Below the pieces are notes generated by a model. The model worked only from the letters and a program-made list of their open reading frames with translations. It did no database searches and was not told the DNA's origin. Position numbers and translations under genes: made by a program. This document shows, piece after piece, positions 2,084-56,774 of a DNA stretch of 64,000 bases. Source of the DNA: Eledone cirrhosa (lineage: Eukaryota); NCBI GenBank assembly GCA_964016885.1, contig OZ024743.1, positions 6,820,001-6,884,000 on the forward strand. Reading direction: 5' to 3'. The first letter of the stretch is position 1; each line of letters starts with the position of its first letter.

Positions 2084-4780
2084 AGGCAGTGAATTAGCAG
2101 AGTTGTTAGAACATCCGATAGAACGTTTTATTGCATTCGTTCCGGCTCTCTGCTCTCTGAGTTCAAATCCCGCCGAGGCCAACTTTGCCTTTCATCCTTT
2201 CGAGGTCGATAAAAAAAGTACCAGTCTAGTACTGGGGTCGATTCTTCCTCTATATCTCTTTCTCACTCCCATTCTCTCACCCTCTCTATCTCTTTCTCAC
2301 TCCCATTCTCTCACCCTCTCTATCTCTTTCTCACTCCCATTCTCTCACCCTCTCTATCTCTTTCTCACTCCCATTCTCTCACTCTCTTTATCTCTTTCTC
2401 ACTCCCATTCTCTCTATCTCTTTCTCACTCCCATTCTCTCACTCTCTCTATCTCACTCCCATTCTCTCACCCTCTCTATCTCTTTCTCACTCCCATTCTC
2501 TCACTCTCTTTATCTCTTTCTCACTCCCATTCTCTCTATCTCTTTCTCACTCCCATTCTCTCACTCTATCTCTTTCTCACTCCCATTCTCTCACCCTCTC
2601 TATCTCTTTCTCACTCCCATTCTCTCACCCTCTCTATCTCTTTCTCACTCCCATTCTCTCACCCTCTCTATCTCTTTCTCACTCCCATTCTCTCACTCTC
2701 TTTATCTCTTTCTCACTCCCATTCTCTCTATCTCTTTCTCACTCCCATTCTCTCACTCTCTCTATCTCACTCCCATTCTCTCACCCTCTCTATCTCTTTC
2801 TCACTCCCATTCTCTCACTCTCTTTATCTCTTTCTCACTCCCATTCTCTCTATCTCTTTCTCACTCCCATTCTCTCACTCTATCTCTTTCTCACTCCCAT
2901 TCTCTCACCCTCTCTATCTCTTTCTCACTCCCATTCTCTCAGTCTCTCTATCTCTTTCTCACTCCCATTCTCTCACCCTCTCTATCTCTTTCTCACTCCC
3001 ATTCTCTCACCCTCTCTATCTCTTTCTCACTCCCATTCTCTCACCCTCTCTATCTCTTTCTCACTCCCATTCTCTCTATCTCTTTCTCACTCCCATTCTC
3101 TCAGTCTCTCTATCTCTTTCTCACTCCCATTCTCTCACCCTCTCTATCTCTTTCTCACTCCCATTCTCTCACCCTCTCTATCTCTTTCTCACTCCCATTC
3201 TCTCACCCTCTCTATCTCTTTCTCACTCCCATTCTCTCACTCTCTTTATCTCTTTCTCACTCCCATTCTCTCTATCTCTTTCTCACTCCCATTCTCTCAC
3301 TCTCTCTATCTCTTTCTCACTCCCATTCTCTCACCCTCTCTATCTCTTTCTCACTCCCATTCTCTCACCCTCTCTATCTCTTTCTCACTCCCATTCTCTC
3401 TATCTCTTTCTCACTCCCATTCTCTCACTCTATCTCTTTCTCACTCCCATTCTCTCTATCTCTTTCTCACTCCCATTCTCTCTATCTCTTTCTCACTCCC
3501 ATTCTCTCACCCTCTCTATCTCTTTCTCACTCCCATTCTCTCACCCTCTCTATCTCTTTCTCACTCCCATTCTCTCTATCTCTTTCTCACTCCCATTCTC
3601 TCACTCTCTCTATCTCTTTCTCACTCCCATTCTCTCACCCTCTCTATCTCTTTCTCACTCCCATTCTCTCACCCTCTCTATCTCTTTCTCACTCCCATTC
3701 TCTCTATCTCTTTCTCACTCCCATTCTCTCTATCTCTTTCTCACTCCCATTCTCTCACTCTCTCTATCTCTTTCTCACTCCCATTCTCTCACCCTCTCTA
3801 TCTCTTTCTCACTCCCATTCTCTCACCCTCTCTATCTCTTTCTCACTCCCATTCTCTCACCCTCTCTATCTCTTTCTCACTCCCATTCTCTCACCCTCTC
3901 TATCTCTTTCTCACTCCCATTCTCTCACCCTCTCTATCTCTTTCTCACTCCCATTCTCTCTATCTCTTTCTCACTCCCATTCTCTCACTCTATCTCTTTC
4001 TCACTCCCATTCTCTCACCCTCTCTATCTCTTTCTCACTCCCATTCTCTCACCCTCTCTATCTCTTTCTCACTCCCATTCTCTCAGTCTCTCTATCTCTT
4101 TCTCACTCCCATTCTCTCTATCTCTTTCTCACTCCCATTCTCTCACTCTATCTCTTTCTCACTCCCATTCTCTCACCCTCTCTATCTCTTTCTCACTCCC
4201 ATTCTCTCACCCTCTCTATCTCTTTCTCACTCCCATTCTCTCAGTCTCTCTATCTCTTTCTCACTCCCATTCTCTCTATCTCTTTCTCACTCCCATTCTC
4301 TCACTCTATCTCTTTCTCACTCCCATTCTCTCACCCTCTCTATCTCTTTCTCACTCCCATTCTCTCACCCTCTCTATCTCTTTCTCACTCCCATTCTCTC
4401 AGTCTCTCTATCTCTTTCTCACTCCCATTCTCTCTATCTCTTTCTCACTCCCATTCTCTCAGTCTCTCTATCTCTTTCTCACTCCCATTCTCTCACCCTC
4501 TCTATCTCTTTCTCACTCCCATTCTCTCACCCTCTCTATCTCTTTCTCACTCCCATTCTCTCACCCTCTCTATCTCTTTCTCACTCCCATTCTCTCACCC
4601 TCTCTATCTCTTTCTCACTCCCATTCTCTCTATCTCTTTCTCACTCCCATTCTCTCAGTCTCTCTATCTCTTTCTCACTCCCATTCTCTCACCCTCTCTA
4701 TCTCTTTCTCACTCCCATTCTCTCACCCTCTCTATTCTTCTCTGGAAGAAAACTGTGGTATATCAAACCTGTATGTCAAT
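2084..4780 (+). mobile_element. tRNA-derived SINE (family A) with an internally expanded minisatellite
   Basis: GAGTTCAAATCC B-box and aactttgcctttcatcctttcg body; both flanks of the array match the unexpanded copy at 62100-62321. Confidence 0.8.
2248..4735. repeat. 2.5 kb pyrimidine-rich minisatellite, 34 bp unit with 26/30 bp variants
   Basis: Unit tctctcaccctctctatctctttctcactcccat, roughly 75-80 copies. Confidence 0.97.
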
Positions 4781-36674: not shown

Positions 36675-37182
36675 TTATTCATTTTGTTTATTATATTCAA
36701 GTTGAAGTTCATTTAAATTTTGCTCCAACATTTCAACTTCATCAAACTTTTGGGCTTGTTTTGCTTGTTTAATATATCCACGAATTATTTCTATTTGCTG
36801 CAACATGGGATCATTTGTATTCTGTGAATAAGAAGAAATCTCTGATGGTTTCCAGCCTTTACCAATATTACCGTTAGTTTCAGTTCTGGAGTCATCCTCC
36901 TGAGATGGAGAAGGAAGTGGTCGATGCTGAGAATGAGAACTGCTTGATGAATCAATAGAAGTTCTTTGTTGTTCTTGTCGTTCCAGAGCTAATTTTTGTT
37001 GCATTTCTACAGCATGAGAGTCTTTCATCTTTTCGTATTCTTCTTGAGATGGAAGTTGTTGAATTCCACTCAAGTTCTCTTTCAAAAAGTTACTAGAAAA
37101 AGTACGTATTGCCCTTTGCAAGTATAGTTGCCTTACAGGTGGAGAAGTTTCATTGTTTAAACCCAGTGTCAAAATTTTTTTA
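36675..37182 (-). CDS. RBSN: Rabenosyn-5 coding exon 8 (terminal; Rab-binding helical hairpin); full CDS 1455 nt, 484 aa
   Basis: ORF 36675-37172. DPMLQQIEIIRGYIKQAKQAQKFDEVEMLEQNLNELQ is the Rbsn Rab-binding motif. Confidence 0.93.
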
Positions 37183-37783
37183 CTGTGAAGAAAAATAAAA
37201 TAGTTTGTAATTTCAACAATAAATCTTATACAGTTTGATTCCTATAACAATATTTCAATTGTATCAAATAAAAAAGAAGCTGATCATCAGATCAGACCAA
37301 GGAAATATTGTTTCCATTAGTCTTTTCATTGCTGATACTATCTGCTGGTTGCAACTCCTAAAAGAAGGAGATAGAATTTGAACCGAGAATGTGCAGATGC
37401 AGAATTTGAGCTCAGAATGTGTAGAAGCAGATCAGATATTGCAATGCATCATGTCTGACTCTTTAACAATTCTGCTAATCTACCACACCTGGACTGGTAC
37501 TTTAACCTTTGACCCTGAAAGGATGAAAGGCAAAGTCAACCTCAGCAGGATTTGAACTCAAAGCAGTGAGCTGGTACAAATACTGAGGTATTTAATCTGA
37601 CACTCTGACAACTGGCACTTAGAATCATATATATATAACAAAAAAACTGCAATTTAAAAACATTAAAGTGCACATGTTCTTTAACAGAAAACTTTTTTTT
37701 AATCTATCATCACAACCTCTCTCTTCGATGCAATGCATAATCTGAAAAACTACAAACTTCACTTAACGTAACATTTCATATAT

Positions 37784-39503: not shown

Positions 39504-39665
39504 TTGCAAATGAAAATGACATAAAATGAGAGCATCTATCACAGACAATTCCTCCACATAATCGACAATGGTGTCGGCGACGGGTGACCATAAATGTTCT
39601 AGCACAGGAAGGACACATGGGCACATCTGCATCATTTACCCAAGGAACCACAGTTTTTTCAAATA
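39504..39665 (-). CDS. RBSN: Rabenosyn-5 coding exon 4 (FYVE domain)
   Basis: EKTVVPWVNDADVPMCPSCARTFMVTRRRHHCRLCGGIVCDRCS contains the WxxD and RRHHCR FYVE motifs. Confidence 0.96.
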
Positions 39666-40252
39666 CTGAAAAAAACAAAAAGATTATATATTTTAGTATT
39701 TACAATCTAAAAAGTAATACTAAACAAAACTAATAAGAAAATATTTACATTGTAACAGTTCCAGAAAATACAAATATCCGTAATGGAAACATGTTGCCAC
39801 GATGAAATGCACCTAGTACACTCTGTAAAGTGGCAATGCTGGTGCTATGATAGAATGAATCCAGTACATTCTGTAAGGTGGTGGTGCTGGTGCCATAAGA
39901 ATGCACCCAGTACACTCATGTAAAGTGGTAGGTGTCAGGAAAAGCATGCAGCTGTAGAAACTATGCCAAAAGTGGAATGTATGAGCAAGATATGTTTTTT
40001 TAACTTGTCTCGTCTTGGACTGTAATGACCCATCCAACCTTTGACAGCATTGAAAAACAGACATATGATGATGATTATATATATATATATATATATATAT
40101 AGTTATCGTCATATGTCAGAAAGTCCTATACAAACGAGACACGGTTACCCAACCAAACTTGCCTCAAATGGGACAAACCCGTCTAACCCATGCTAGCATG
40201 AAAGATAGACATTAAATGATGATAATGATGATGATATATATATATATATAGA

Positions 40253-40316
40253 CAGTGTGTCCACAAAGTCACTAGACAATTTTATATATATATTTAGTGA
40301 CTTTTGGGACACACTG
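40253..40316. mobile_element. Collapsed 64 bp Tc1/mariner-type MITE (essentially TIRs only)
   Basis: CAGTGTGTCCACAAAGTCACTA / TAGTGACTTTTGGGACACACTG, 22 bp inverted repeat with 2 mismatches, inside (TA)n. Confidence 0.7.
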
Positions 40317-40340
40317 TATATATATATATATATATATATA

Positions 40341-40802
40341 TAAGATCAAAATACTTGAGTGTGTTAGAGTTAAACACACTCGTCGTATTGGAGAAATGAC
40401 AGTATAAGATATAGCTCAATGTAATCCAACAGAGCTGAAAAATTATAAAAAAATAAACAAAGAAGCCTTCAATACATCAAAAATCTTTATTAGCCGACAA
40501 TGTTTCGTCCCATTAATAAGAACTCATCAGGGCAAGCAAAGAGACAAGAAGCATTAATGGCCAAAACAAGCCAAAACTCAGAAGAACAGGGAATTTATAT
40601 CTATGAAAACTTAGGAAAGACATCATGGAAAGACATGCTAAAGTTAAAAGTGAGCATTTGCAAATATAGACTATAGGGCTAGAGAGCAAGTAATATGTCA
40701 AACCCATGTTGAAAGAACAATATAAGACAAATACATGAAATACAACATGGTAATACAATATGAGAATTATAATATGATATAGAAAACTATAATGGATAAT
40801 AA
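40341..40802. repeat. PLE pseudo-LTR, direct repeat of 45979-46441 (~460 bp)
   Basis: Both begin taagatcaaaatacttgagtgtg and end aatggataataa, with only a handful of differences. Confidence 0.95.
40485..40541 (-). ncRNA. Type I hammerhead ribozyme motif, copy 1 (3' pseudo-LTR)
   Basis: Exact reverse complement of 48340-48396; predicted cut after 40496. Confidence 0.88.
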
Positions 40803-40820
40803 GAAATAAAAAGCTTAATA

Positions 40821-40857
<37 letters not shown>

Positions 40858-41981
40858 TTACACAAACACATACTAACACTTGTTTAAATATTTAAATATA
40901 ATAATCATTATAATAGCATATCACCTGACGGTGTGCATAAACAATATCAAAAACAATGGAATAATATACTGACATAAAAAATATATAAAACTACATCATA
41001 CGTATCATTTAAGGTCAACAAATTGTATATAAAGTTTTTCACAGGGTAAGAAAAAATATATAAAAATAAAGTATAGTGAAAGAATATATATAACTATATA
41101 GAATATTGACAATAAATATCCAGAGGTATATGCAGTTCAAATTCATAAAATATTACAAAACACTACCTCAATAACGGACATGTATATATAATTCAATTCC
41201 ATAAAAATAATAATGTTAATATTACAATAGCAGACAGACAGAATCAATGGAAAATGCTTAAGACATATTTACGCGATGCATACAAATAGACATATGAGGA
41301 GACAATAACAAATAATAGGAGAACAGACAGCATGTGGTAGTAAAAAAAAAAATAAAAGAAAACGAAGAACAAAAACAAAAACAAGCACAGACGTTACAAG
41401 TCCTTAGGTAAATATAGATAATATTACTATTCTGGATCAAAGAATTAAATTGAAAACCTTATTAAATTAATTAGTACTAAAACTGTTTAAAAGACATTAT
41501 GGGTCACTTCATATGGAATAAAGTTTAAGTCATCAAAGTCAAATAAAATTAAGATATTTCAATAAGAAAGCTAAAATATCTATCAAGATTTATTACGATA
41601 CATCCAGACTAATTACGATATCAAGGAAAAAAACTCCAAATAAAACTCTGGTAGACCAATGGGAACATAAAGAAGTAGAACTATGGAGGGTAGGAAGGAG
41701 CATAAAGGTAAAAATTTATATATAATCAATATAAATTGACCATATATAAATTTATATATAATATTAAATATAATATTATTTTCATCCCAACCAGGGATGA
41801 AAATAAAGATAGAAACTTATAAGGCGACAATGGTGAATAAAAATGTAATAATGGTAAAGATGATAGAAAGGGTAGGATAGCTAGAGAGACTATGAAAACT
41901 AAAACTAAATTGAAAAACCGTAGAAAACCAATAATGGTAATAATAATGAACTAAAACCAAAGAGATAAGGAAATATAGCAG

Positions 41982-42648
41982 CTAAAGGATACGGTTTAAA
42001 CTACCGGAGCTTTTAGGTCTATAATAGAAGAAGGAATTAGAAATAGCATGCGGACAGGAAGAAAAAATTTCAGATTTTCTATTAAGTAATACGTTCCTAG
42101 AGAAAATTATAGAGTGGGTCTCTAGGATACAAAGATTACAGAATTTAGCGTGTGTTGAGAGGTGATTAGAGTGTGCTACTATACGCCAATTTAGGCTATA
42201 TGGTATACCAGCCCCTTTTAAATCCCAGATATGGTGTGCTAAAGAAGTAGAGTTCTTAAACTTGATATACTTAAAATTAGAAATATGTGAATTAAACCTA
42301 GTTTTAAAAGTATTAGATGTGGAGCCTATATATGTTCTACAAGAAGAATTAGTCTTAACTTCACATGCATAAACAATATTCCTAGAGAGGCAGTGACCAT
42401 TTAAAGGGGCAGTTATTACTTAATCTACAGTTACACTTCCGGGTATTAGTGACTAGCTGATTACGCGATGCATTATTCCTAGAGTTATTAGAAGATAAGA
42501 TCTGCTCGGGTGGTAAGTTGTTGATAGAGCTATCTAGATTAGTGGTACGCAAAGAGCAGTAGCTGTCCCTAATTTTCCTATTATTAGTGCTAGCTAGATG
42601 AGAATTAATATTAGGGGTGGTAGAGAAGTAGAGTTTAATTACATTCTT
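41982..42648 (-). pseudogene. PLE ORF, C-terminal part (linker, Cys motif, GIY-YIG) with a +1 frameshift near 42404
   Basis: Resumes in frame (SIFN|KNVIKLYFSTTPNI) once the RTE is removed. Reads CCCTTTAAATGG versus CCCTTGAATGG in the inverted copy. Confidence 0.88.
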
Positions 42649-42650
42649 AT

Positions 42651-43997
42651 CTCTAGTTTGTAGGAAAGAAAATATGGCGGCAGTCCCATCTGGAAAATGG
42701 CCATGCTCAGTGTGTAGGAAAGGCGTAGGTAGAAACTCCATTTTATGTCCCAAATGCAAAGTATGGGTGCATAAAAGATGTAGTGGGATCACAGGTAAGC
42801 TAACTAAGAACATAGATTTTACATGTGGCCGGTGCTCTGGTGCAATAAGTAGCAGCAAGTGCCCACAAAATACTAGCTCCTTCAACTGCGCAGAGGGTTC
42901 TATAGAAATAGTGGACAGCTTCCGTTACCTGGGTGACAAAATCAGCAATGGGGGAGGGTGCTCTGAAAGTACAGTAGCTAGGGTCAGAACTGGATGGAAA
43001 AAGTTCAGAGAGCTTATACCACTATTAGCCGCTAGAGGGTTCTCCCTAAAAATGAAAGGCAGGTTATACGATGCCTGCATACGAACAGCAATGCTGCATG
43101 GCAGTGAGACCTGGGCATTGTGTGCAGAGGATATACGCAGACTAGAGAGGAACGAAGCTTGCATGCTCCGCTGGATGTGCAATAGTAATATACGTGAACG
43201 GCAAAGCATAAACGAACTAAGGAAAAAATTAGAAATAAGAGGGATCAGATGTTGTTTACTCGAGAGAAGGCTACGTTGGTACGGTCACGTGATGCGCATG
43301 AAAGACGACAGCTGTATAACAAAGTGCAGGGCAATAAAGATAGACGGTAGCCACGGAGTAGGCAGACCCAGAAAAACATGGGACGAGCTGATAAATTCCG
43401 ACCTCACACGCTTACACCTCTCCAAGACAATGTCACTGGACCGAGACCTTTGGCGGTACTCAGTAATAGAGAAGACCCGCCTTACCTAAATACAAAGTAA
43501 AAACCTACTACAGTCAGTAGGCATCTCTATCAAAACACCCCCCGTCCCACCACCTCTACCCCATCCACACCGCCCCTTTCAATGTACAGTTATGTTGGTC
43601 CCACAACATCCAGGCCGAAACAAATGAGATCGTGTAGGTGTCACGACAAAAAACACACAGTCCACGCTGTAAATGTGGCCGTGTAGGTAACACGGTAAAA
43701 ACCTCCCAGCCCCACACTGTAAATGTGGTTGGTGTTAGGAAGGGCATCCAGCTGTAGAAAACCCGCCAGACAGTCCACGCTGTAATGTGGCCGTGTAGGC
43801 AACACGGTAAAAACCTCCCAGCCCCACACTGTAAATGTGGTTGGTGTTAGGAAGGGCATCCAACTGTAGAAAACCCACCAGACAGTCCTATGCGAGCAAG
43901 ACAACCACTCTTGCCTCAAGTGGGAAAACCCCCGTCCAAACCCATGCAAGCGTGGAACACGGACGCTAAACCTGATGATGATGATGATGATGATGAT
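42651..43997 (+). mobile_element. 5'-truncated RTE-clade LINE with PHD-like finger, nested in the PLE ORF
   Basis: ORF 42674-43489: C4HC3 finger, FRYLG, MLHGSETW, RRLRWYGHV, GRPRKTW. 3' UTR with a duplicated ~112 bp block and a (GAT)n tail. Only AT is shared at the two junctions. Confidence 0.92.
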
Positions 43998-45909
43998 TAA
44001 AGATACTATGGTATTTATTAGTAGGAGGGAAATTTTTCTCTAAAATAGAAAAGAAAGATCTAGGGATATTAGTTAATACTTCATGATTATAAGGTGGGTT
44101 AAAGTAAGTATTGAGCCTCCTCCTATTCTTACCTTTACTATTTCTATTTCTATCCCGTATCGTATTAATAGGATTAGGGTTAATACTAGGACCAGTTGAA
44201 TCAACATTATTAGAAGCCGTTAAAACATCACCACTGGGTGAACGTTCAGAGCGCCTATCCTGTTCACTAGAACTAATCTCAAAAAGTGCACCATTAGACT
44301 CACTATTACGATTATTATTGTGGTAGTTATACATATGGTTCGGTTTGGATGAACCAATAAAATTTCTATGATTCCTAGATTTTCTTCTCCCATTCAAGGC
44401 CATGTTATGGGATATTACGTTATTATTGGTAAACGGAGTCATTCCAAGGTAGTTATCTTTATAGTGTATTCTACCTGAGTAACCAGAGTTAGCTAGGGCA
44501 TTATTATAATACTCAGCATGTGAATTAAATATTCCTATGTCTTTAAAGAGTGTGGAGATTCTATTAGATACACCATTAATAATAGAACTAATCATAGATT
44601 TAGGGTGGTTAGAATTAGGATTAACGTAAGAGAGTGTCTCATTAGGCTTGTGGAAGGGTTTATAATTATTAGTGACCAAGTCCAATGTCACATCTAAAAA
44701 GTTAACAGCTCTATCATTCCTATCAATCGTGATCGAAAAGTTAAAATTAAAAAAAAATTTATACAACTTCTTCCTATTATGTTCAATGCTATTAGTACTA
44801 GAGTTTATTACAAATAATGCATCGTCACGATAAAGTCCACCTTTAAGGTGCGGAAAGCTAACATAAAGTTCGTTCAAGAGGTACAGCCCAACAAGATCAG
44901 TTACCTGCGCAGAATCACTCGAACCCATGGTAACGTCAAAGTTGTTGGGTGTGTTTTTACGCATCCAAAGTGTATCCTCGAATTTGATGATAGTCTTACG
45001 GGCGGCTAGTATAACATCAATCTGGGGACGCGTAAGACTAGACATTCGCATGGCTATAATTAGGGCTTTATTAAGGAGGATAGGTGAAATCGACGTGTAA
45101 TAGGCGTCTATATCAAACTGGATAAACCTACTAGACTTAAGCTTATTTATACCAGAGAACCAATCAATAACATCCATAGTGTTCCCCCATAGATTAAAAT
45201 TAACCTTTTCTCTAACGGTGGGTATAATCAGGTCAAGAATTTTCTTACTAATTATAGCTATATCAGACTTAGAAGAACTGATAAGTCTAGCAGTAGGATT
45301 ACTTAAGAAGTCCACCTTATGATCCTTAAGTATGAATCTCAGTTCCCTAGGGTAATAAGGTTGGGTATACTTATCAAGACCCAGATCCGAAACTATCTTG
45401 AGGCCCTCATTATTAATTTGATCTAAATTATCTTGCGTTGTCTTTTTGTAATTTTTATACAACTCCTTATAAATAAAATTACGGTAGGCAATGTAATCCA
45501 TAGAGTAAAGATTCTTAGTCTTGTCAGCTGGGACAAGAATAGACCTATTCCCTTTAAAATCCCTAACAATATTCTTAAGTTTAGACTGGAACTTGTCAAA
45601 TTTATTATAGTTCCCATATTTATTATGCGGCTTATATTTAATATTTTTGACAAGGGAAAGTAAATCGTTCTCAAAACTATCTAATAGAACATTATGCGGT
45701 GGACTTATATAAGTCTTGAAGCCAAAGTTATTGAATGGAGTCTTACTACTGGGGTTATTCCTATTCCTATTACTATCAAAGTGGAAAGCACGCCATCTAA
45801 TCCGTTTTACGAATGAGTTAACGTTAGCAATCAAGAGTTTTTCATAAGTATTTCTAGAAGGGATGGGAATATTCTTCAGAGATAAAGGCAAGTAGCTCTT
45901 TGTTAGCAT
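43996..45909 (-). pseudogene. PLE ORF, N-terminal 638 codons (reverse transcriptase and thumb), interrupted by an RTE insertion
   Basis: ORF 43966-45909: SLKNIPIPS...FVKRIRWRAFHF, PADKT, FIQFDIDAYYTSI, FDVTMGSSD, GLYRDD, FLDVTLDL, YFNPPY. The His run at the ORF end is the RTE (CAT)n tail. Confidence 0.92.
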
Positions 45910-46121
45910 ACTGTCAGATGTATATAAAGGCCAAAATACCAGTATATAGGATAAAGCTCAACCAATCGGGAGCCGTAATAAGATCAAAATACTTGAGTGT
46001 GTTAGAGTTAAACACACTCGTTGTATTGGAGAAATGACAGTATAAGATATAGCTCAATGTAATCCAACAGAGCCGAAAAATTATAAAAAATAAACAAAGA
46101 AGCCTTCAATACATCAAAAGT

Positions 46122-46178
46122 CTTTATTAGCCGACAATGTTTCGTCCCATTAATAAGAACTCATCAGGGCAAGCAAAG
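46122..46178 (-). ncRNA. Type I hammerhead ribozyme motif, copy 2 (5' pseudo-LTR)
   Basis: Exact reverse complement of 48340-48396; predicted cut after 46133. Confidence 0.88.
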
Positions 46179-46440
46179 AGACAAGAAGCATTAACGGCCA
46201 AAACAAGCCAAAACTCAGAAGAACAGGGAATTTATATCTATGAAAACTTAGGAAAGACATCATGGAAAGACATGCTAAAGTTAAAAGTGAGCATTTGCAA
46301 ATATAGACTATAGGGCTAGAGAGCAAGTAATATGTCAAACCCATGTTGAAAGAACAATATAAGACAAATACATGAAATACAACATGGTAATACAATATGA
46401 GAATTATAATATGATATAGAAAACAATATAATGGATAATA

Positions 46441-46911
46441 ATGGATAATACCCGGAAGTGTAACTGTAGATTAAGTAATAACTGCCCCTTGAATGGCCAC
46501 TGCCTCTCTAGGAATATTGTTTATGCATGTGAAGTTAAGACTAATTCTTCTTGTAGAACATATATAGGCTCCACATCTAATACTTTTAAAACTAGGTTTA
46601 ATTCACATATTTCTAATTTTAAGCATATCAAGTTTAAGAACTCTACTTCTTTAGCACACCATATCTGGGATTTAAAAGGGGCTGGTATACCATATAGCCT
46701 AAATTGGCGTATAGTAGCACACTCTAATCACCTCTCAACACACGCTAAATTCTGTAATCTTTGTATCCTAGAGACCCACTCTATAATTTTCTCTAGGAAC
46801 GTATTACTTAATAGAAAATCTGAAATTTTTTCTTCCTGTCCGCATGCTATTTCTAATTCCTTCTTCTATTATAGACCTAAAAGCTCCGGTAGTTTAAACC
46901 GTATCCTTTAG
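46441..46911 (+). CDS. Stand-alone, uninterrupted GIY-YIG endonuclease ORF (156 aa) in the inverted PLE copy
   Basis: CNCRLSNNCPLNGHC, IVY...YIG, FKTRFNSH, SLAHHIW, CNLCILE, LNRKSE. The ATG lies in the junction duplication. Expression unknown. Confidence 0.6.
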   Translation: MDNTRKCNCRLSNNCPLNGHCLSRNIVYACEVKTNSSCRTYIGSTSNTFKTRFNSHISNFKHIKFKNSTSLAHHIWDLKGAGIPYSLNWRIVAHSNHLSTHAKFCNLCILETHSIIFSRNVLLNRKSEIFSSCPHAISNSFFYYRPKSSGSLNRIL

Positions 46912-48441
46912 CTGCTATATTTCTTTATCTCTTTGGTTTTAGTTCATTATTATTACCATTATTGGTTTTCTACGGTTTTTCAATTTAGTTTTAGTTTTCA
47001 TAGTCTCTCTAGCTATCCTACCCTTTCTATCATCTTTACCATTATTACATTTTTATTCACCATTGTCGCCTTATAAGTTTCTATCTTTATTTTCATCCCT
47101 GGTTGGGATGAAAATAATATTATATTTAATATTATATATAAATTTATATATGGTCAATTTATATTGATTATATATAAATGTTTACCTTTATGCTCCTTCC
47201 TACCCTCCATAGTTCTACTTCTTTATGTTCCCATTGGTCTACCAGAGTTTTATTTGGAGTTTTTTTCCTTGATATCGTAATTAGTCTGGATGTATCGTAA
47301 TAAATCTTGATAGATATTTTAGCTTTCTTATTGAAATATCTTAATTTTATTTGACTTTGATGACTTAAACTTTATTCCATATGAAGTGACCCATAATGTC
47401 TTTTAAACAGTTTTAGTACTAATTAATTTAATAAGGTTTTCAATTTAATTCTTTGATCCAGAATAGTAATATTATCTATATTTACCTAAGGACTTGTAAC
47501 GTCTGTGCTTGTTTTTGTTTTTGTTCTTCGTTTTCTTTTATTTTTTTTTTTACTACCACATGCTGTCTGTTCTCCTATTATTTGTTATTGTCTCCTCATA
47601 TGTCTATTTGTATGCATCGCGTAAATATGTCTTAAGCATTTTCCATTGATTCTGTCTGTCTGCTATTGTAATATTAACATTATTATTTTTATGGAATTGA
47701 ATTATATATACATGTCCGTTATTGAGGTAGTGTTTTGTAATATTTTATGAATTTGAACTGCATATACCTCTGGATATTTATTGTCAATATTCTATATAGT
47801 TATATATATTCTTTCACTATACTTTATTTTTATATATTTTTTCTTACCCTGTGAAAAACTTTATATACAATTTGTTGACCTTAAATGATACGTATGATGT
47901 AGTTTTATATATTTTTTATGTCAGTATATTATTCCATTGTTTTTGATATTGTTTATGCACACCGTCAGGTGATATGCTATTATAATGATTATTATATTTA
48001 AATATTTAAACAAGTGTTAGTATGTGTTTGTGTAAATGTGTATATATATATACATATATATTAAGCTTTTTATTTCTTATTATCCATTATATTGTTTTCT
48101 ATATCATATTATAATTCTCATATTGTATTACCATGTTGTGTTTCATGTATTTGTCTTATATTGTTCTTTCAACGTGGGTTTGACATATTACTTGCTCTCT
48201 AGCCCTATAGTCTATATTTGCAAATGCTTACTTTTAACTTTAGCATGTCTTTCCATGATGTCTTTCCTAAGTTTTCATAGATATAAATTCCCTGTTCTTC
48301 TGAGTTTTGGCTTGTTTTGGCCATTAATGCTTCTTGTCTCTTTGCTTGCCCTGATGAGTTCTTATTAATGGGACGAAACATTGTCGGCTAATAAAGACTT
48401 TTGATGTATTGAAGGCTTCTTTGTTTATTTTTTATCATTTT

Positions 48442-48442
<1 letters not shown>
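46446..48442 (+). repeat. ~2 kb inverted duplicate of 40438-42448
   Basis: Reverse-complement match by eye with few differences. The ORF track shows mirrored ORFs (41258-41440 - and 47453-47635 +). Confidence 0.95.
48340..48396 (+). ncRNA. Type I hammerhead ribozyme motif (PLE pseudo-LTR), copy 3
   Basis: ctttgcttgcc CTGATGA gttcttattaatgggac GAAA cattGTC ggctaataaag. Perfect core; stem I gcc/ggc extended by ctttg/taaag; stem II GUUCU/GGGAC; minimal palindromic stem III; predicted cut after C48385. Confidence 0.88.
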
Positions 48443-48483
<41 letters not shown>

Positions 48484-49438: not shown

Positions 49439-49582
49439 CTTTTCGTTTATTTGGATCAGTTGGTGCCTCAGGACTTATTAGCTTATCAAGTCTAATAAGT
49501 AGCTTGTTAGTTTCTATCACAAATCTATCCACCCGGGCATCTCGAATTGATTTAAAGTTTTCTGTGTGACTTCGAAAGGTTC
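49439..49582 (-). CDS. RBSN: Rabenosyn-5 coding exon 3
   Basis: TFRSHTENFKSIRDARVDRFVIETNKLLIRLDKL... is the conserved rabenosyn block; phase 1-1. Confidence 0.93.
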
Positions 49583-52857: not shown

Positions 52858-55760
52858 ATAATAATAATGAAATTATTGTGTAAAGTGCTAAGGTGCACTA
52901 CAACTCGTCAATATAGTACATAGAATAATACACAAATGTCAGGGAAGTACATGTGTGTATGTGTTAGCTGTAGTGTTGGCGGATCTCGGGAAGCATGGAG
53001 GCCTTAAAGGATGCAGTGTCTCGACAGCTAACAACTGATGCAGGTAGTTTGTTCCATGCTTCAGCAACTCTGAGCATGAAAAAATGTTTCAGAAAGTCAT
53101 GGGAACTGTGCTGTTTTCTGACTTTGTGGGCATGTCCACGTGTGTTAGACACATGGAAATCGAAAAGGTACTCAGGGTTGTTGTTGGCAACATGGTTAAC
53201 AATTTTGTGGGTGTTTACCAAGTCAGTTGCCAGGCATCGGAGCTTCAATGAATCCATGCCCAGGGAAGCAAGGCGCTCAGAGTATGGTAGATGCCTGATG
53301 GAGGGTATTCGCTTGGTTGCACGTCTCTGAACAGTTTCCAGGCGGTCAATGTCCTGAGCAAGATAGGGGTTCCAGACTGGTGATGCAAATTCTAAGTGTG
53401 GTCGCACCATAGCTGTATACAGCCTTAAATAGATATCTGGAGAGCGGCTGACAAAGGTCTTGCTGAGTGATGCTAAGACACCCTCGGCCCTCTTGACAAT
53501 TTTAGAGACGTGCCTCGTCCAACGCAAATCGCTGCTGACCGTAATGCCCAGGTCACGTTCACAGGAAGACTTCTTGATATTAGTGCTGTGGAGGGAGTAT
53601 GTGGACGCTGGGTTTTTACTCCCAAAATGCATGGTGGTGCACTTGTCCACAGCTAGCTTGAGTTGCCAGTCTGAGATCCATTGTTGCATTGTGTCCAGGT
53701 CAGACTGCAAGCAAGATCTAGAGTGTTCAGGATCTGTCCTTTTTATTTCAAGGTACAGCTTGATGTCGTCTGCATACTTTAGTACTGTGGCATTCCTTAA
53801 GTTGGCATCTATGTCATTAATATATGCCACAAACAAAAGGGGGCCAAGAACAGATCCCTGTGGTACACCAGATGACATCTCATATGATGAGGAATGCTGT
53901 CCCAGAACCGTGACTACCTCTCTTCGACTGAGAATGAAGGACTTCAACCAGTTAAAAAGATCATCCTTCACACCCATTGCAGAGAGTTTTGCCATAAGCC
54001 TTTTGTGTGGCACAGAATTGAAGGCCTTCGCAAAGTCAAGGTAAACAACATCCACCCATGAGCCGCCATCAGTGATCCGGGTGATGTCCTCAAGAAACTC
54101 TATAAGTTGATCACAGCAGCTGGAGTTGGGGATAAATCCAAATTGCGAGGGCCGGATAAGACTGTGAGCTCCAGAAGTTCCAGAGTCTTTCTCTGACACA
54201 GGATTCCATCAGTTTGGCGATGCAACTAGTAAGACTGACTGGATGATAGTTCACAGGTGATGTGCGGTCACCCTTTTTGAACAGAGGAATGACACTGGCA
54301 GTTTTCCACTGTTCTGGAGTAGCACTGTTGTTCAGACAGAATTGGAAGAAGCGTGATAACTGGTGTAGAAGGAAGTACCCACCACGTTTAAGAAGCAGGT
54401 ACGTAATACCATCAAGACCAGGAGAGGCATGGTTGCGTTTATTTTTTAGGTGACGTCGCAGCATTGCAGGTGTAAATTCCATGGTTGTAATAGAGTCCGG
54501 TGTCATAGGTGGTGGAGATGGTACACTCTGGTTCTCAATAGTGAAAATGCCTGCATAGCATTCAGCAATGAGCTCTGCGCATTCCTTGGGGTCGTCAGTA
54601 ACCTGGCTTGTGTGGGGATTGCGAAGAGGACCAACTGAAGAGTGAGGCCTCTGCTTTGAGTGAACATACTTCCAGAACACCTTACTGTCAGGGCTGGTTG
54701 CTATGCGCTGCTCAAATTGAAGCACTGCCTTTTTTGTCACCTGTTTAAGGTGGTTGGACGATCTATTTCGCCTCTTCCTATTAATGTTTGATTTGTGAAG
54801 TTTGTACTCACGTTCAGCATTGCGCCGTTCTTTTCTGGCAAGACGGACTGCTGCAGTCTCCCAAATTGCGCTTTTAGGATGTTTTTTCCGCTTACGTGAC
54901 ACCGATGCTGTCCATATTGAGCTCAGGATGTTCTGGAGTACAGTGTTGACATCTCCAGAGTCGTAGAACTCAAGCCAGTTTGGCCGTTGCAACTCGGTGC
55001 AGTAACAGTTCCAGTCTGCTTTATTCCAGTCAAAGTGAGCAGTTTGGAGATGGTTGTGGTTCTTGTTACTGCCCATGAGGGATAGATTGGCAATGATCAT
55101 AGCATGATCAGAGTCACCTAAAGGTTCCTCAGCAGTAACACTAATGACCGTTTCAGGAGTAGTGGTGAAGAGTAGGTCCAAAGTGTTGTCACCTCTCGTT
55201 GGGGAGGTGACCACCTGGGACCAACTCGAGTCCAGCACCAGCTCAAGGAAGTCATTTGCACTTGGCGGCCAACGAAAGGTCTCCCAGTCAATCTCAGGGT
55301 GATTGAAGTCACCTCCAATGAAAACATAAGTGGCTGTCTTCCTGGCAGCAGCTCTGAGGATATCACAAAGTTGAGTGTCCTGATGGTAATTTGGGGGGTG
55401 GTAAACGACTCCAAGTAGCAGTGTTGACATGGTCATATGTATATCGCAGAAAAAAACTTCCTGCTGTGATTGATTCAAATCAGCACAAGGAATTGCCGAC
55501 AGATTTGACCGAACGTAGACCATTACACCACCACCACCACGATTAATGCGGTCTTTACAAAACAGGTTGTAGCCAGTCATGCTGAAAACCCCATCACAGA
55601 GTAAGGGATGTGCCCAAGTTTCCGTGACTGTAATGAAGTCCGGGTTGATACTTTTGACGTAGGAGTCAAAAAGATGAATCTTATTGCATAGACTACGTGC
55701 ATTCAAGGACAACAATTTGTACTTTGATTCCAGTCTATGATTATGTGCAGGGGATTTTTG
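52858..55760 (-). mobile_element. CR1-group LINE, nearly complete ORF2 (APE endonuclease plus RT) with one frameshift near 54165
   Basis: ORFs 54111-55715 (NARS, TETW, GDFN, SDH) and 52964-54199 (QFGF, LDFAKAF, GVPQGSVLGP, YADD, TRGH, WNKLP); (ATT)n 3' tail. Confidence 0.93.
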
Positions 55761-56774
55761 GACATTTGTAGATTAACATTTCCAGGAAAATTATAGGCAG
55801 GGAACGAATTCACAAATTGCAGTTCATAGGAAGTAGGATTGACAAAGGATTTAGACTGTGTTATCCTCAATAGCCCACACATGGAGGGGCTCTACTGGGC
55901 TGGGTTTGCCAAATATATATTGCAAAGCAGCACTCCCATAACGCTGGATGGTCAAGGGAAGAGTGAAGTTTTCATTGGTCCAAATGCTTGTAAAAGTGTA
56001 ATGATGCTACAGACATATCAACCAAAATATTAATATAAATAAACTGTCTTTTGTTGAAACAAACTATACCAATAATGAAACTTACCAGTAAGGAAAAAAA
56101 CCTGTATGCAGAAATTATATATGGGTAGAAGGAAAAATATATAGACTATGTTAGATACTTGTGTTTGATTTTGTGGAAGTTTTCATTGAAATATTCCTTG
56201 CACTAATATTGTCATTGATCCAAAAGAGACTACTATTCTGTCAATGATGACATCATTTTCCACACATAAATTATCCTTTAATAACTTTAATGTGTTTCTC
56301 ATCAAAAAAATTAGTACAACAGACAAATGGTAACAACAACAAAAAACACAATATGTGCAGTGCATCCAACAGACATTTTTCCAAAAAAGATTTAATATGA
56401 AGTAGAAAAATTAAACTTGAGAAGATTAAGCTCTGCAAAAGAACTGAAAAGACTGGACAAGATTGTTGGAAAGATGTTGTGAAAATGACTTACTCAAGCT
56501 ATATTTGCATAAAAGATGTTTTATGTGTGTGGGAGTATATGTGTCCTTGGTTGAACAAGTGACTAGAAAGCCTATTAAACAATTTAATTTTGGACAGTTC
56601 ACATTCTCTAACAGCCTATATTATTAATATAAGAAAGTATATAATTCATTTCTTATGATTCCAACACCACAAGGACCACAGTGAAAATGGGGGGAGGGAG
56701 GTTTAAATAGAATGATTGAAAGAAAATTAATATTGATGGGTGGATATGCTCCTAACACAGCACATTGTTAAAAT

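Follow-up and report, generated by a model that had tools for sequence, protein, structure and literature searches.

Penelope-like elements (PLEs) form the sister group of the telomerase reverse transcriptases (RTs). The PLE analyzed here occupies positions 40341 to 48442 of a 64,000-nucleotide stretch of the Eledone cirrhosa genome (GCA_964016885.1, contig OZ024743.1, positions 6,820,001 to 6,884,000 of the forward strand; the whole stretch is called the window, and its numbering is used throughout). What is new here is a family-wide pairing rule: one long and one short terminus per inverted insertion. Two PLE clades that bear on this element were described by Craig et al. 2021 (PMC8557442, cited from the parts of the paper available to us). 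Hydra elements carry a C-terminal endonuclease (EN) without a CCHH motif, RWK, a DKT motif changed from DKG, CxCX5C and CxxC/CxH motifs, hammerheads and (TA)n targets; their RT4(B) is divergent, they lack an IFD, and they do not conserve the GxKF/Y motif near the N-terminus. They are described as generally short (<3 kb), which is stated as a tendency. In Naiad elements the EN is N-terminal, the DK motif reads DKA, and a canonical hammerhead is missing. File S1 of that paper lists 27 Hydra families and has entries for Hydra-1_Obim of Octopus bimaculoides (2507 bp, 709 aa) and for Penelope-13_HM, which mentions a 5' inverted copy; the legend of Fig. 2 gives a pseudo-long terminal repeat (pLTR) plus an inverted copy as typical, often with a 30-40-bp tail at one end only. 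The clade, the host group and the layout are therefore already known, and the novelty claimed in a preliminary description of the locus was overstated, since the clade is catalogued in Octopus bimaculoides and the direct-plus-inverted layout is textbook. How tandem and inverted PLE insertions form was called unresolved by Craig et al. 2021. In a 2026 retrozyme preprint on 35 species, a coral was, according to its accessible text, the only one in which Hydra was detected (10.64898/2026.07.22.740005).

The purified protein of Poseidon PAc from Anolis carolinensis (Frangieh et al. 2024, PMC11167929, likewise available to us in part) nicks and extends both strands and starts at two internal RNA sites that delimit a tail; the hammerhead is dispensable in vitro, and the protein was modelled as a dimer. 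Two start sites were thus shown in vitro for one Poseidon element, and their use within one integration is not described in the accessible text. The present family appears to share with PAc two RT starts delimiting an optional tail, an AT-rich target and, as we infer from genomic copies, the cutting and extension of both strands and a hammerhead lying away from the cDNA start. PAc differs in belonging to another clade and in having a tail of 30-40 nt that lies inside the open reading frame (ORF) start, whereas the tail here is ~100 nt of untranslated region (UTR). Neither a one-of-each pairing rule nor stalling at the second site is reported in the available part of PMC11167929. Penelope families of Adineta vaga share with the present family two direct pLTRs and one inverted pLTR, a tail on one inverted end and an Asn-rich in-frame insert; these are other PLE families, and their inserts are longer and ~30% Asn versus ~16% here (PMC3846280, from its accessible part).

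Self-BLAST confirmed the direct and inverted structure of the window element. The preliminary description had reported a pLTR, an ORF with RT and GIY-YIG domains, a second pLTR and a 2-kb inverted copy, all between (TA)n tracts, and each of these was recovered: positions 40340-40802 match 45978-46441 directly (98.5% identity), and 40438-42448 match 46446-48442 in inverted orientation (98.6%; 10 substitutions and 4 indel events in the alignment). The parts of the element are as follows.

40317-40342, no strand: (TA)n target, left flank
40341-40802, minus strand: 3' pLTR, ending at the long terminus L (40341), from self-comparison
40341-40440, minus strand: ~100-nt tail with a terminal hairpin, within the 3' pLTR
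40493-40533, minus strand: minimal type I hammerhead, core at 40503-40530, predicted to be dimer-dependent
40341-41981, minus strand: long AT-rich 3' UTR, ~1.64 kb
41982-42648, minus strand: C-terminal part of the ORF, with linker, CxCx5C, GIY-YIG EN, CxxC and CxH
42652-43995, plus strand: RTE-type long interspersed nuclear element (LINE), 5'-truncated, with a (TGA)n tail, a later insertion
43996-45909, minus strand: N-terminal 638 codons of the ORF, with RWR, DKT, RT core (YRDD), thumb and Asn/Ser-rich spacer
45979-46441, minus strand: 5' pLTR, a 463-nt copy of the 3' end, hammerhead core at 46140-46167
46432-46450, no strand: head-to-head junction, a short duplicated AT-rich word plus microhomology, read from the sequence
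46446-48442, plus strand: inverted arm, a copy of 40438-42448, hammerhead core at 48351-48378
48445-48480, no strand: (TA)n target, right flank

The three hammerhead cores (minus, minus and plus strand, respectively) are identical, as had been claimed, and are the sole pattern matches in the window; the earlier mention of type I hammerheads is likewise supported. The frame runs for 638 codons from the Met at 45909 to the RTE junction, and 42648-41985 adds 664 nt, or 221 codons plus one base, so that the 859-aa ORF proposed earlier holds once the RTE and one extra base near 42401-42409, which frameshifts the C-terminal part, are removed. With the RTE insertion and the frameshift, the window copy is dead, and on its own it is ordinary. 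The inverted arm retains an intact EN frame (46432-46911) and terminates at a short terminus, S, where it carries one extra (T)nATAAT-like unit. The two arms of the window element, body and inverted copy, share 12 variants found in 0 of 13 close relatives and differ at only 10-11 of ~2000 sites, which argues for one insertion event. No read or contig crossed the central junction among reads and contigs on 45700-47000, which were too fragmented to judge. Misassembly is nevertheless an unlikely source of the inverted layout, because the arms differ from each other, share the 12 variants absent from the 13 relatives, and show a layout that recurs at 34 other loci.

A search of the 3.0-Gb genome gave at least 69 long RT matches at 70-100% and at least 150 EN matches at 84-100%. 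We fetched 100 stretches of up to 10 kb, dropped L056 (a duplicate of L055) and L080-L083 (extensions), and retained 96 loci including the window, with arm lengths read by hand. Among 130 TA-flanked ends at these loci, 69 lay at L, 56 at S, a site ~100 nt upstream of L, and 5 elsewhere. A sister subfamily (71-79% aa identity) keeps the two termini, with a hammerhead-to-TA distance of mostly 153 or 50-54 nt, and TA-flanked loose ends near S also occurred in reads from two other samples.

The two termini are used one each. Head-to-head insertions with two canonical ends were L+S in 34 of 35 cases, S+S in one (L084) and L+L in none (p ~1e-9 versus 0.5); this count leaves out arms of <28 nt, such as the tiny opposite-type arms visible by eye in L085 and L088, three loci with one odd end each (L037, L051 and L079), and several whose far end lay outside the fetched stretch. 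Protein queries cannot see the ends, and of the 18 loci that they retrieved, 17 were L+S. A tail-containing query, which cannot hide L+L loci, contributed 13 of the 35 inverted loci. Either site can prime the long arm, as L090, L111, L114, L119 and L126 have a full body that terminates at S. In addition, 9 of 38 L arms were 96-115 nt long, making up 9 of the 16 arms of ≤400 nt (p 7e-8), which indicates that the L product stops at the S site. Each arm ranked its partner first or second among ~90 copies in 16 of 21 inverted pairs, and a private allele was common to both arms in 11 of these 21, compared with 43 of 4726 cross-locus pairs. By these comparisons the two arms of a locus are sisters from the same source, and for the window this ranking, together with the 12 shared private variants, agrees with the single integration event that had been proposed. 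Extra (T)nATAAT-like units were present at 20 of 49 S ends, with two or more units at 6, and they look like a signature of priming or initiation.

What can be read directly from the sequence is the clade marks, the fixed termini L and S, their use one each per inverted insertion, the sister arms, and the later damage by the RTE and the frameshift. Beyond this, we consider it fairly probable that coupled twin priming made the window insertion. The GIY-YIG enzyme would nick both strands of the (TA)n target, and both nicked strands would prime reverse transcription, one at the long end L of the RNA and the other ~100 nt inside, at S. Two RT active sites, perhaps those of a dimer, would start at L and S and move in the same direction along the template. 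Stalling of the trailing L-primed enzyme at the S primer would leave tail-only arms, and displacement or bypass of the S cDNA would give overlapping arms, as in the window. A cDNA extended past the ORF start would return to the 3' end on a template that is circular, tandem or reached by a jump, and so form the 5' pLTR; the two cDNA 3' ends would be joined by microhomology, and an arm of near-zero length would leave a plain truncated copy with its terminus at L or S. The one-each use of L and S and the frequent stalling of L products at S make coupled twin priming on one template the simplest reading. In the twin priming that Ostertag and Kazazian reportedly described for L1 in 2001, priming by the second target strand takes place within the RNA and yields a 5' inversion joined by microhomology, with a variable second site and arms that barely overlap. 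In contrast, the second site here is fixed, and the arms overlap by up to kilobases. No statement of twin priming for PLEs was found in the literature searched, which left out most subscription papers, and the model may be in print; the same literature yielded no PLE structure paper.

Several observations weigh against coupled twin priming on one template. The loci are top-scoring matches and not a random sample. L084 is S+S, L037, L051 and L079 each have one non-canonical end, and many direct copies have no second arm of ≥28 nt. L047 (4341-7666) has the L+S inverted layout with arms 15% apart and may reflect two templates of different subfamilies or two insertions. Extra units were found at 0 of 10 S ends of the sister subfamily, and one extra S-end unit is partly templated. 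Gene conversion could have produced sister-like arms. In the window, the three pLTR copies carry incompatible variants, with 40558 grouping the 3' and inverted copies and 40707 grouping the 3' and 5' copies, a pattern that may reflect conversion, template mosaics or recurrent change. For arms that overlap, such as the 2 kb of the window, either strands must be displaced or a second RNA of that locus must serve as template, two possibilities that look alike in the sequence. [quoted passage not shown]

The requirement for displacement would fall away if each particle held two RNAs, that is, if a dimeric complex carried transcripts mostly of the same locus, perhaps joined by a dimeric hammerhead, and its protomers primed at L and S. 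In the models, only the dimer of the hammerhead is stable (-8.1 versus +0.8 kcal/mol for the monomer), and L047 joins arms of different subfamilies, both of which fit such a particle. However, two RNAs explain neither the pile-up of L arms at the S site nor the template stop shared by both arms in L054 and L058, and we regard this alternative as unlikely, if a serious one. An explanation in which a single RT switches to its own cDNA, or self-primes on an antisense template, copies back, and stops ~100 nt short of the 3' end is closest to the template switching proposed in the preliminary description and to Arkhipova et al. 2013. Sister arms would follow directly from such self-priming, the junctions at L054, L058 and L125 are palindromic, and a self-priming proposal is in print (PMC3846280, in its available part). 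Most junctions are nonetheless non-palindromic, and the window joins element positions 1.65 kb apart. The S arm is often far longer than the L arm, both in the tail-only class and in L090, L111, L114, L119 and L126, and an S arm that extends past the L arm cannot arise by copying of the L cDNA. Repeated units at S suggest initiation, not termination, and copying back would have to run through the internal (TA)n at 40818-40852 without stopping. We find fold-back copying distinctly unlikely, and second priming at a fixed site explains the inverted arm better than template switching alone. Two independent insertions into one (TA)n, or an assembly artefact, are very improbable. In their favour, (TA)n tracts are hit often, L047 is a possible example, and the central junction is spanned by no read. 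Against them, no TA sequence separates the arms where they join, the arms have 12 private variants in common while differing at 10-11 sites, and independent insertions would not yield 34 of 35 L+S.

Returning to coupled twin priming, a wider form of the model, to which we give an even chance from the copies compared here, is that twin priming would be obligately coupled in all PLE insertions, one complex priming both target strands at two RNA starts that are fixed and unequal, so that plain truncated, partial tandem, inverted and one-end-tail layouts would differ only in arm length. If this is true, the octopod Hydra family would be a natural read-out and test substrate, its tail being 100 nt long, its copies numerous and its ORFs intact. 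The pairing of one long with one short end and the accumulation of arms at the second site both give quantitative predictions directly testable in vitro, for which the genome offers intact ORFs. The pairing rule sharpens an open mechanistic question, for which the qualitative "tail at one end only" is already in print (PMC8557442, in the part available).

Two further features of arm ends were observed. In L058 (5207-7822), both arms stop at one element position and enclose a second inversion whose halves start at one position. In L075, L076, L114 and L126, the L arm is 194-222 nt long and stops where the hammerhead has its 5' edge, which may be a place where the RT pauses.

The protein and its surroundings place the window element and its family almost certainly in the Hydra clade. 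The preliminary description was correct that the element is a PLE; its assignment to Naiad was not borne out, as DKT and CxCX5C are Hydra marks (PMC8557442). Motifs were scored at 49 loci; open frames of ≥840 aa occur at 28 of them, which represent 24 distinct insertions. All 28 contain DKT and YRDD, and none contains [AP]DK[GA] or Y[VI]DD; the window reads ADKTKN. RW[RK] was found in 23 of 28 (RWR in the window). The EN lacks CCHH: the stretch from the GIY to the YIG equivalent contains a single Cys in 26 of 28 frames and two in another, and one frame did not parse. The CxCx5-6C linker was present in 27 of 28 and CxLC in 26 of 28; the window reads CNCRLSNNC, CNLC and CPH, as compared with the accessible text of Fig. 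S7 of PMC8557442. In the same figure and by eye, the RT4(B) block FDVTMGSSDSAQVTDLVG agrees with the Hydra rows and not with the Penelope, Nematis or Neptune rows, and the thumb block also agrees with the Hydra rows; the divergent RT4(B) pattern recurs in 26 of 28 intact ORFs. The N-terminal FGFKTY of the window resembles the GFK of Hydra-1_Ajap at the GxKF/Y position, a single sequence being compared.

The EN is C-terminal in the family (Pfam GIY-YIG, E=0.001, below Pfam's cut-off), and the family has a sense-strand hammerhead near its 3' end and inserts into (TA)n, both Hydra traits. Naiad traits are missing, with the EN C-terminal, DKA in 0 of 28, a hammerhead present and CCHH absent, and the DKG and CCHH of Penelope/Poseidon, Neptune and Nematis do not occur among the 28 intact ORFs. 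In a quick tree, the family formed one clade (SH-aLRT 97) among Hydra-like database matches, the tree holding no outgroup clades or named references. Pfam gave no match to the RT or to the 860-aa ORF, and a PDB sequence search gave no match at E up to 1. With 4301 and 4842 nt, the units exceed the <3 kb of most Hydras, which we treat as a variant trait.

With the Hydra clade, as represented by Hydra-1_Obim and Penelope-13_HM in the accessible part of PMC8557442, the family shares RW[RK], DKT, GLYRDD, a C-terminal GIY-YIG without CCHH, the CxCx5C linker, CxxC, CxH, the (TA)n target, and a sense hammerhead with a near-palindromic stem III; with Penelope-13_HM it also shares the 5' inverted copy. 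Hydra-1_Obim differs in its length of <3 kb and its 709 aa, against a 4.3-4.8-kb unit and an ORF of ~860-900 aa from Met here. The extra length consists of an Asn/Ser-rich spacer of 105-142 aa after the thumb (SNHP-to-FNPP median of 206 aa versus 69 in database matches) and a 1.6-kb 3' UTR, and by eye the hammerhead and protein of Hydra-1_Obim are clearly distinct from those of the present family. Relative to described Hydras, the family has pLTRs, a ~100-nt tail and many intact copies. Naiad elements are likewise PLEs with pLTRs, inverted copies, a (TA)n preference and occurrence in cephalopods; they differ in their N-terminal EN, DKA, IFD, CCHH and lack of a canonical hammerhead, and in EN position, DK motif, CCHH and hammerhead the present family is the opposite.

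The family itself is probably uncatalogued, as had been suggested, with Dfam and Repbase outside the comparison. The best identities were 43% and 46% among the matches listed (the best 120 of 356 and the best 120 of 218), and the only match named as cephalopod among them had 34% identity. In O. vulgaris, 31 unclassified recently active PLE families have been reported (PMC13282606, accessible part). Uninterrupted copies, a search for which was proposed in the preliminary description, include L005, with 876 aa stop-to-stop, and long frames occur at the 28 of 49 loci. The three closest full-length relatives carry a stop each, and the sister subfamily is largely intact, with up to 98.6% aa identity between copies. 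L113 has a 915-aa open frame and 1 mismatch per 1371 nt between its pLTRs. Of the activity suggested earlier, recent activity of the family is supported by such copies; the window copy is dead and has ~0.5% between its arms, and the intact sister copies are younger. With a borrowed rate (JC 0.09 = 25 My; PMC13282606, accessible part), 0.5% between arms dates the window insertion to roughly 0.7 My, a rough date. The family widens the thinly sampled Hydra clade by a longer, recently active, high-copy lineage missed by Pfam.

L055 and L056 (G000:C2, ~470 kb apart) are one insertion that occurs in both orientations, through either an inverted segmental duplication or a duplicate in the assembly; C4 (78.64/78.94 Mb) and C3 (161.45/161.87 Mb) have similar pairs with equal scores. 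In run X1, segment 46096-46139, immediately 3' of the hammerhead, had a contig word depth that exceeded that of the remaining element ~100-fold, which suggests that it is common to a far more abundant, perhaps non-autonomous, family. ADAR editing of templates found no support (private A>G at 23 of 88 A columns versus T>C at 36 of 193 T columns, p=0.21). Selenocysteine recoding was set aside, since in-frame stops are missing from many copies and, where present, are a mixture of TAA, TAG and TGA.

The hammerhead core was intact in 117 of 129 pattern matches, 4 of which were on the wrong strand. The stems were 97-99% paired, the cleavage base was C, U or A in 127 of 129, and stem I was GCC/GGC in 80 and GCT/AGC in 28, a two-sided change that is possibly one event. 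The modelled folding energies predict a minimal type I, dimer-dependent ribozyme. Single-strand folding was no better than that of shuffles (z 0.06), and Rfam gave no hammerhead match at E up to 1, only chance miRNA matches on (TA)n. Cleavage is predicted after 40496, 155 nt from L and ~54 nt from S. Hammerhead cleavage as the cDNA start was rejected, since the termini lie ~54 and ~155 nt past the cleavage site and 5' pLTR lengths range from 46 to ~1400 nt with no peak at 155. Conservation of the tail hairpin as a structure is weak, its changes being mostly wobble and none of them two-sided; in 9 of 25 rows one pair is disrupted. Unrelated, retrozyme-like hammerheads in tandem units of ~310-450 nt were seen at L118:562-1408, L130:8718-9170, L121:7943-8255, L120:9018 and L112:1367.

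The element sits in an intron of RBSN, on the sense strand of the host gene, where the preliminary description had placed it. The gene was recognized by Pfam matches to FYVE (39505-39663) and Rbsn (36678-37241), and the exons on either side of the intron are bounded by GT/AG and splice in frame around the element.

39504-39665, minus strand: RBSN exon (FYVE), downstream of the host intron, identified by its Pfam match
49439-49582, minus strand: RBSN exon, upstream of the host intron, splicing in frame to the FYVE exon

The RBSN sense strand carries two hammerhead copies plus an antisense arm capable of pairing with them, and an effect on the host would be hypothetical. Directly left of the insertion, at 40234-40335, lies a small TA-flanked element resembling a miniature inverted-repeat transposable element, with 41-nt inverted arms (93%).

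The RTE that interrupts the ORF inserted with a duplication or microhomology of at most 2 nt (AT). It has ~40 near-full-length matches in the genome at 96-99% identity, which indicate a young burst, and its family carries a PHD finger (Pfam E 8e-6) inside the RT region, just before the FRYLG motif (window 42652-43489; L132, L133). A second LINE, at 52964-55772 on the minus strand, has AP-endonuclease and RT frames split by a frameshift, and a pyrimidine-rich minisatellite of 2.5 kb at 2247-4739, with a period of 34, is open in three frames.

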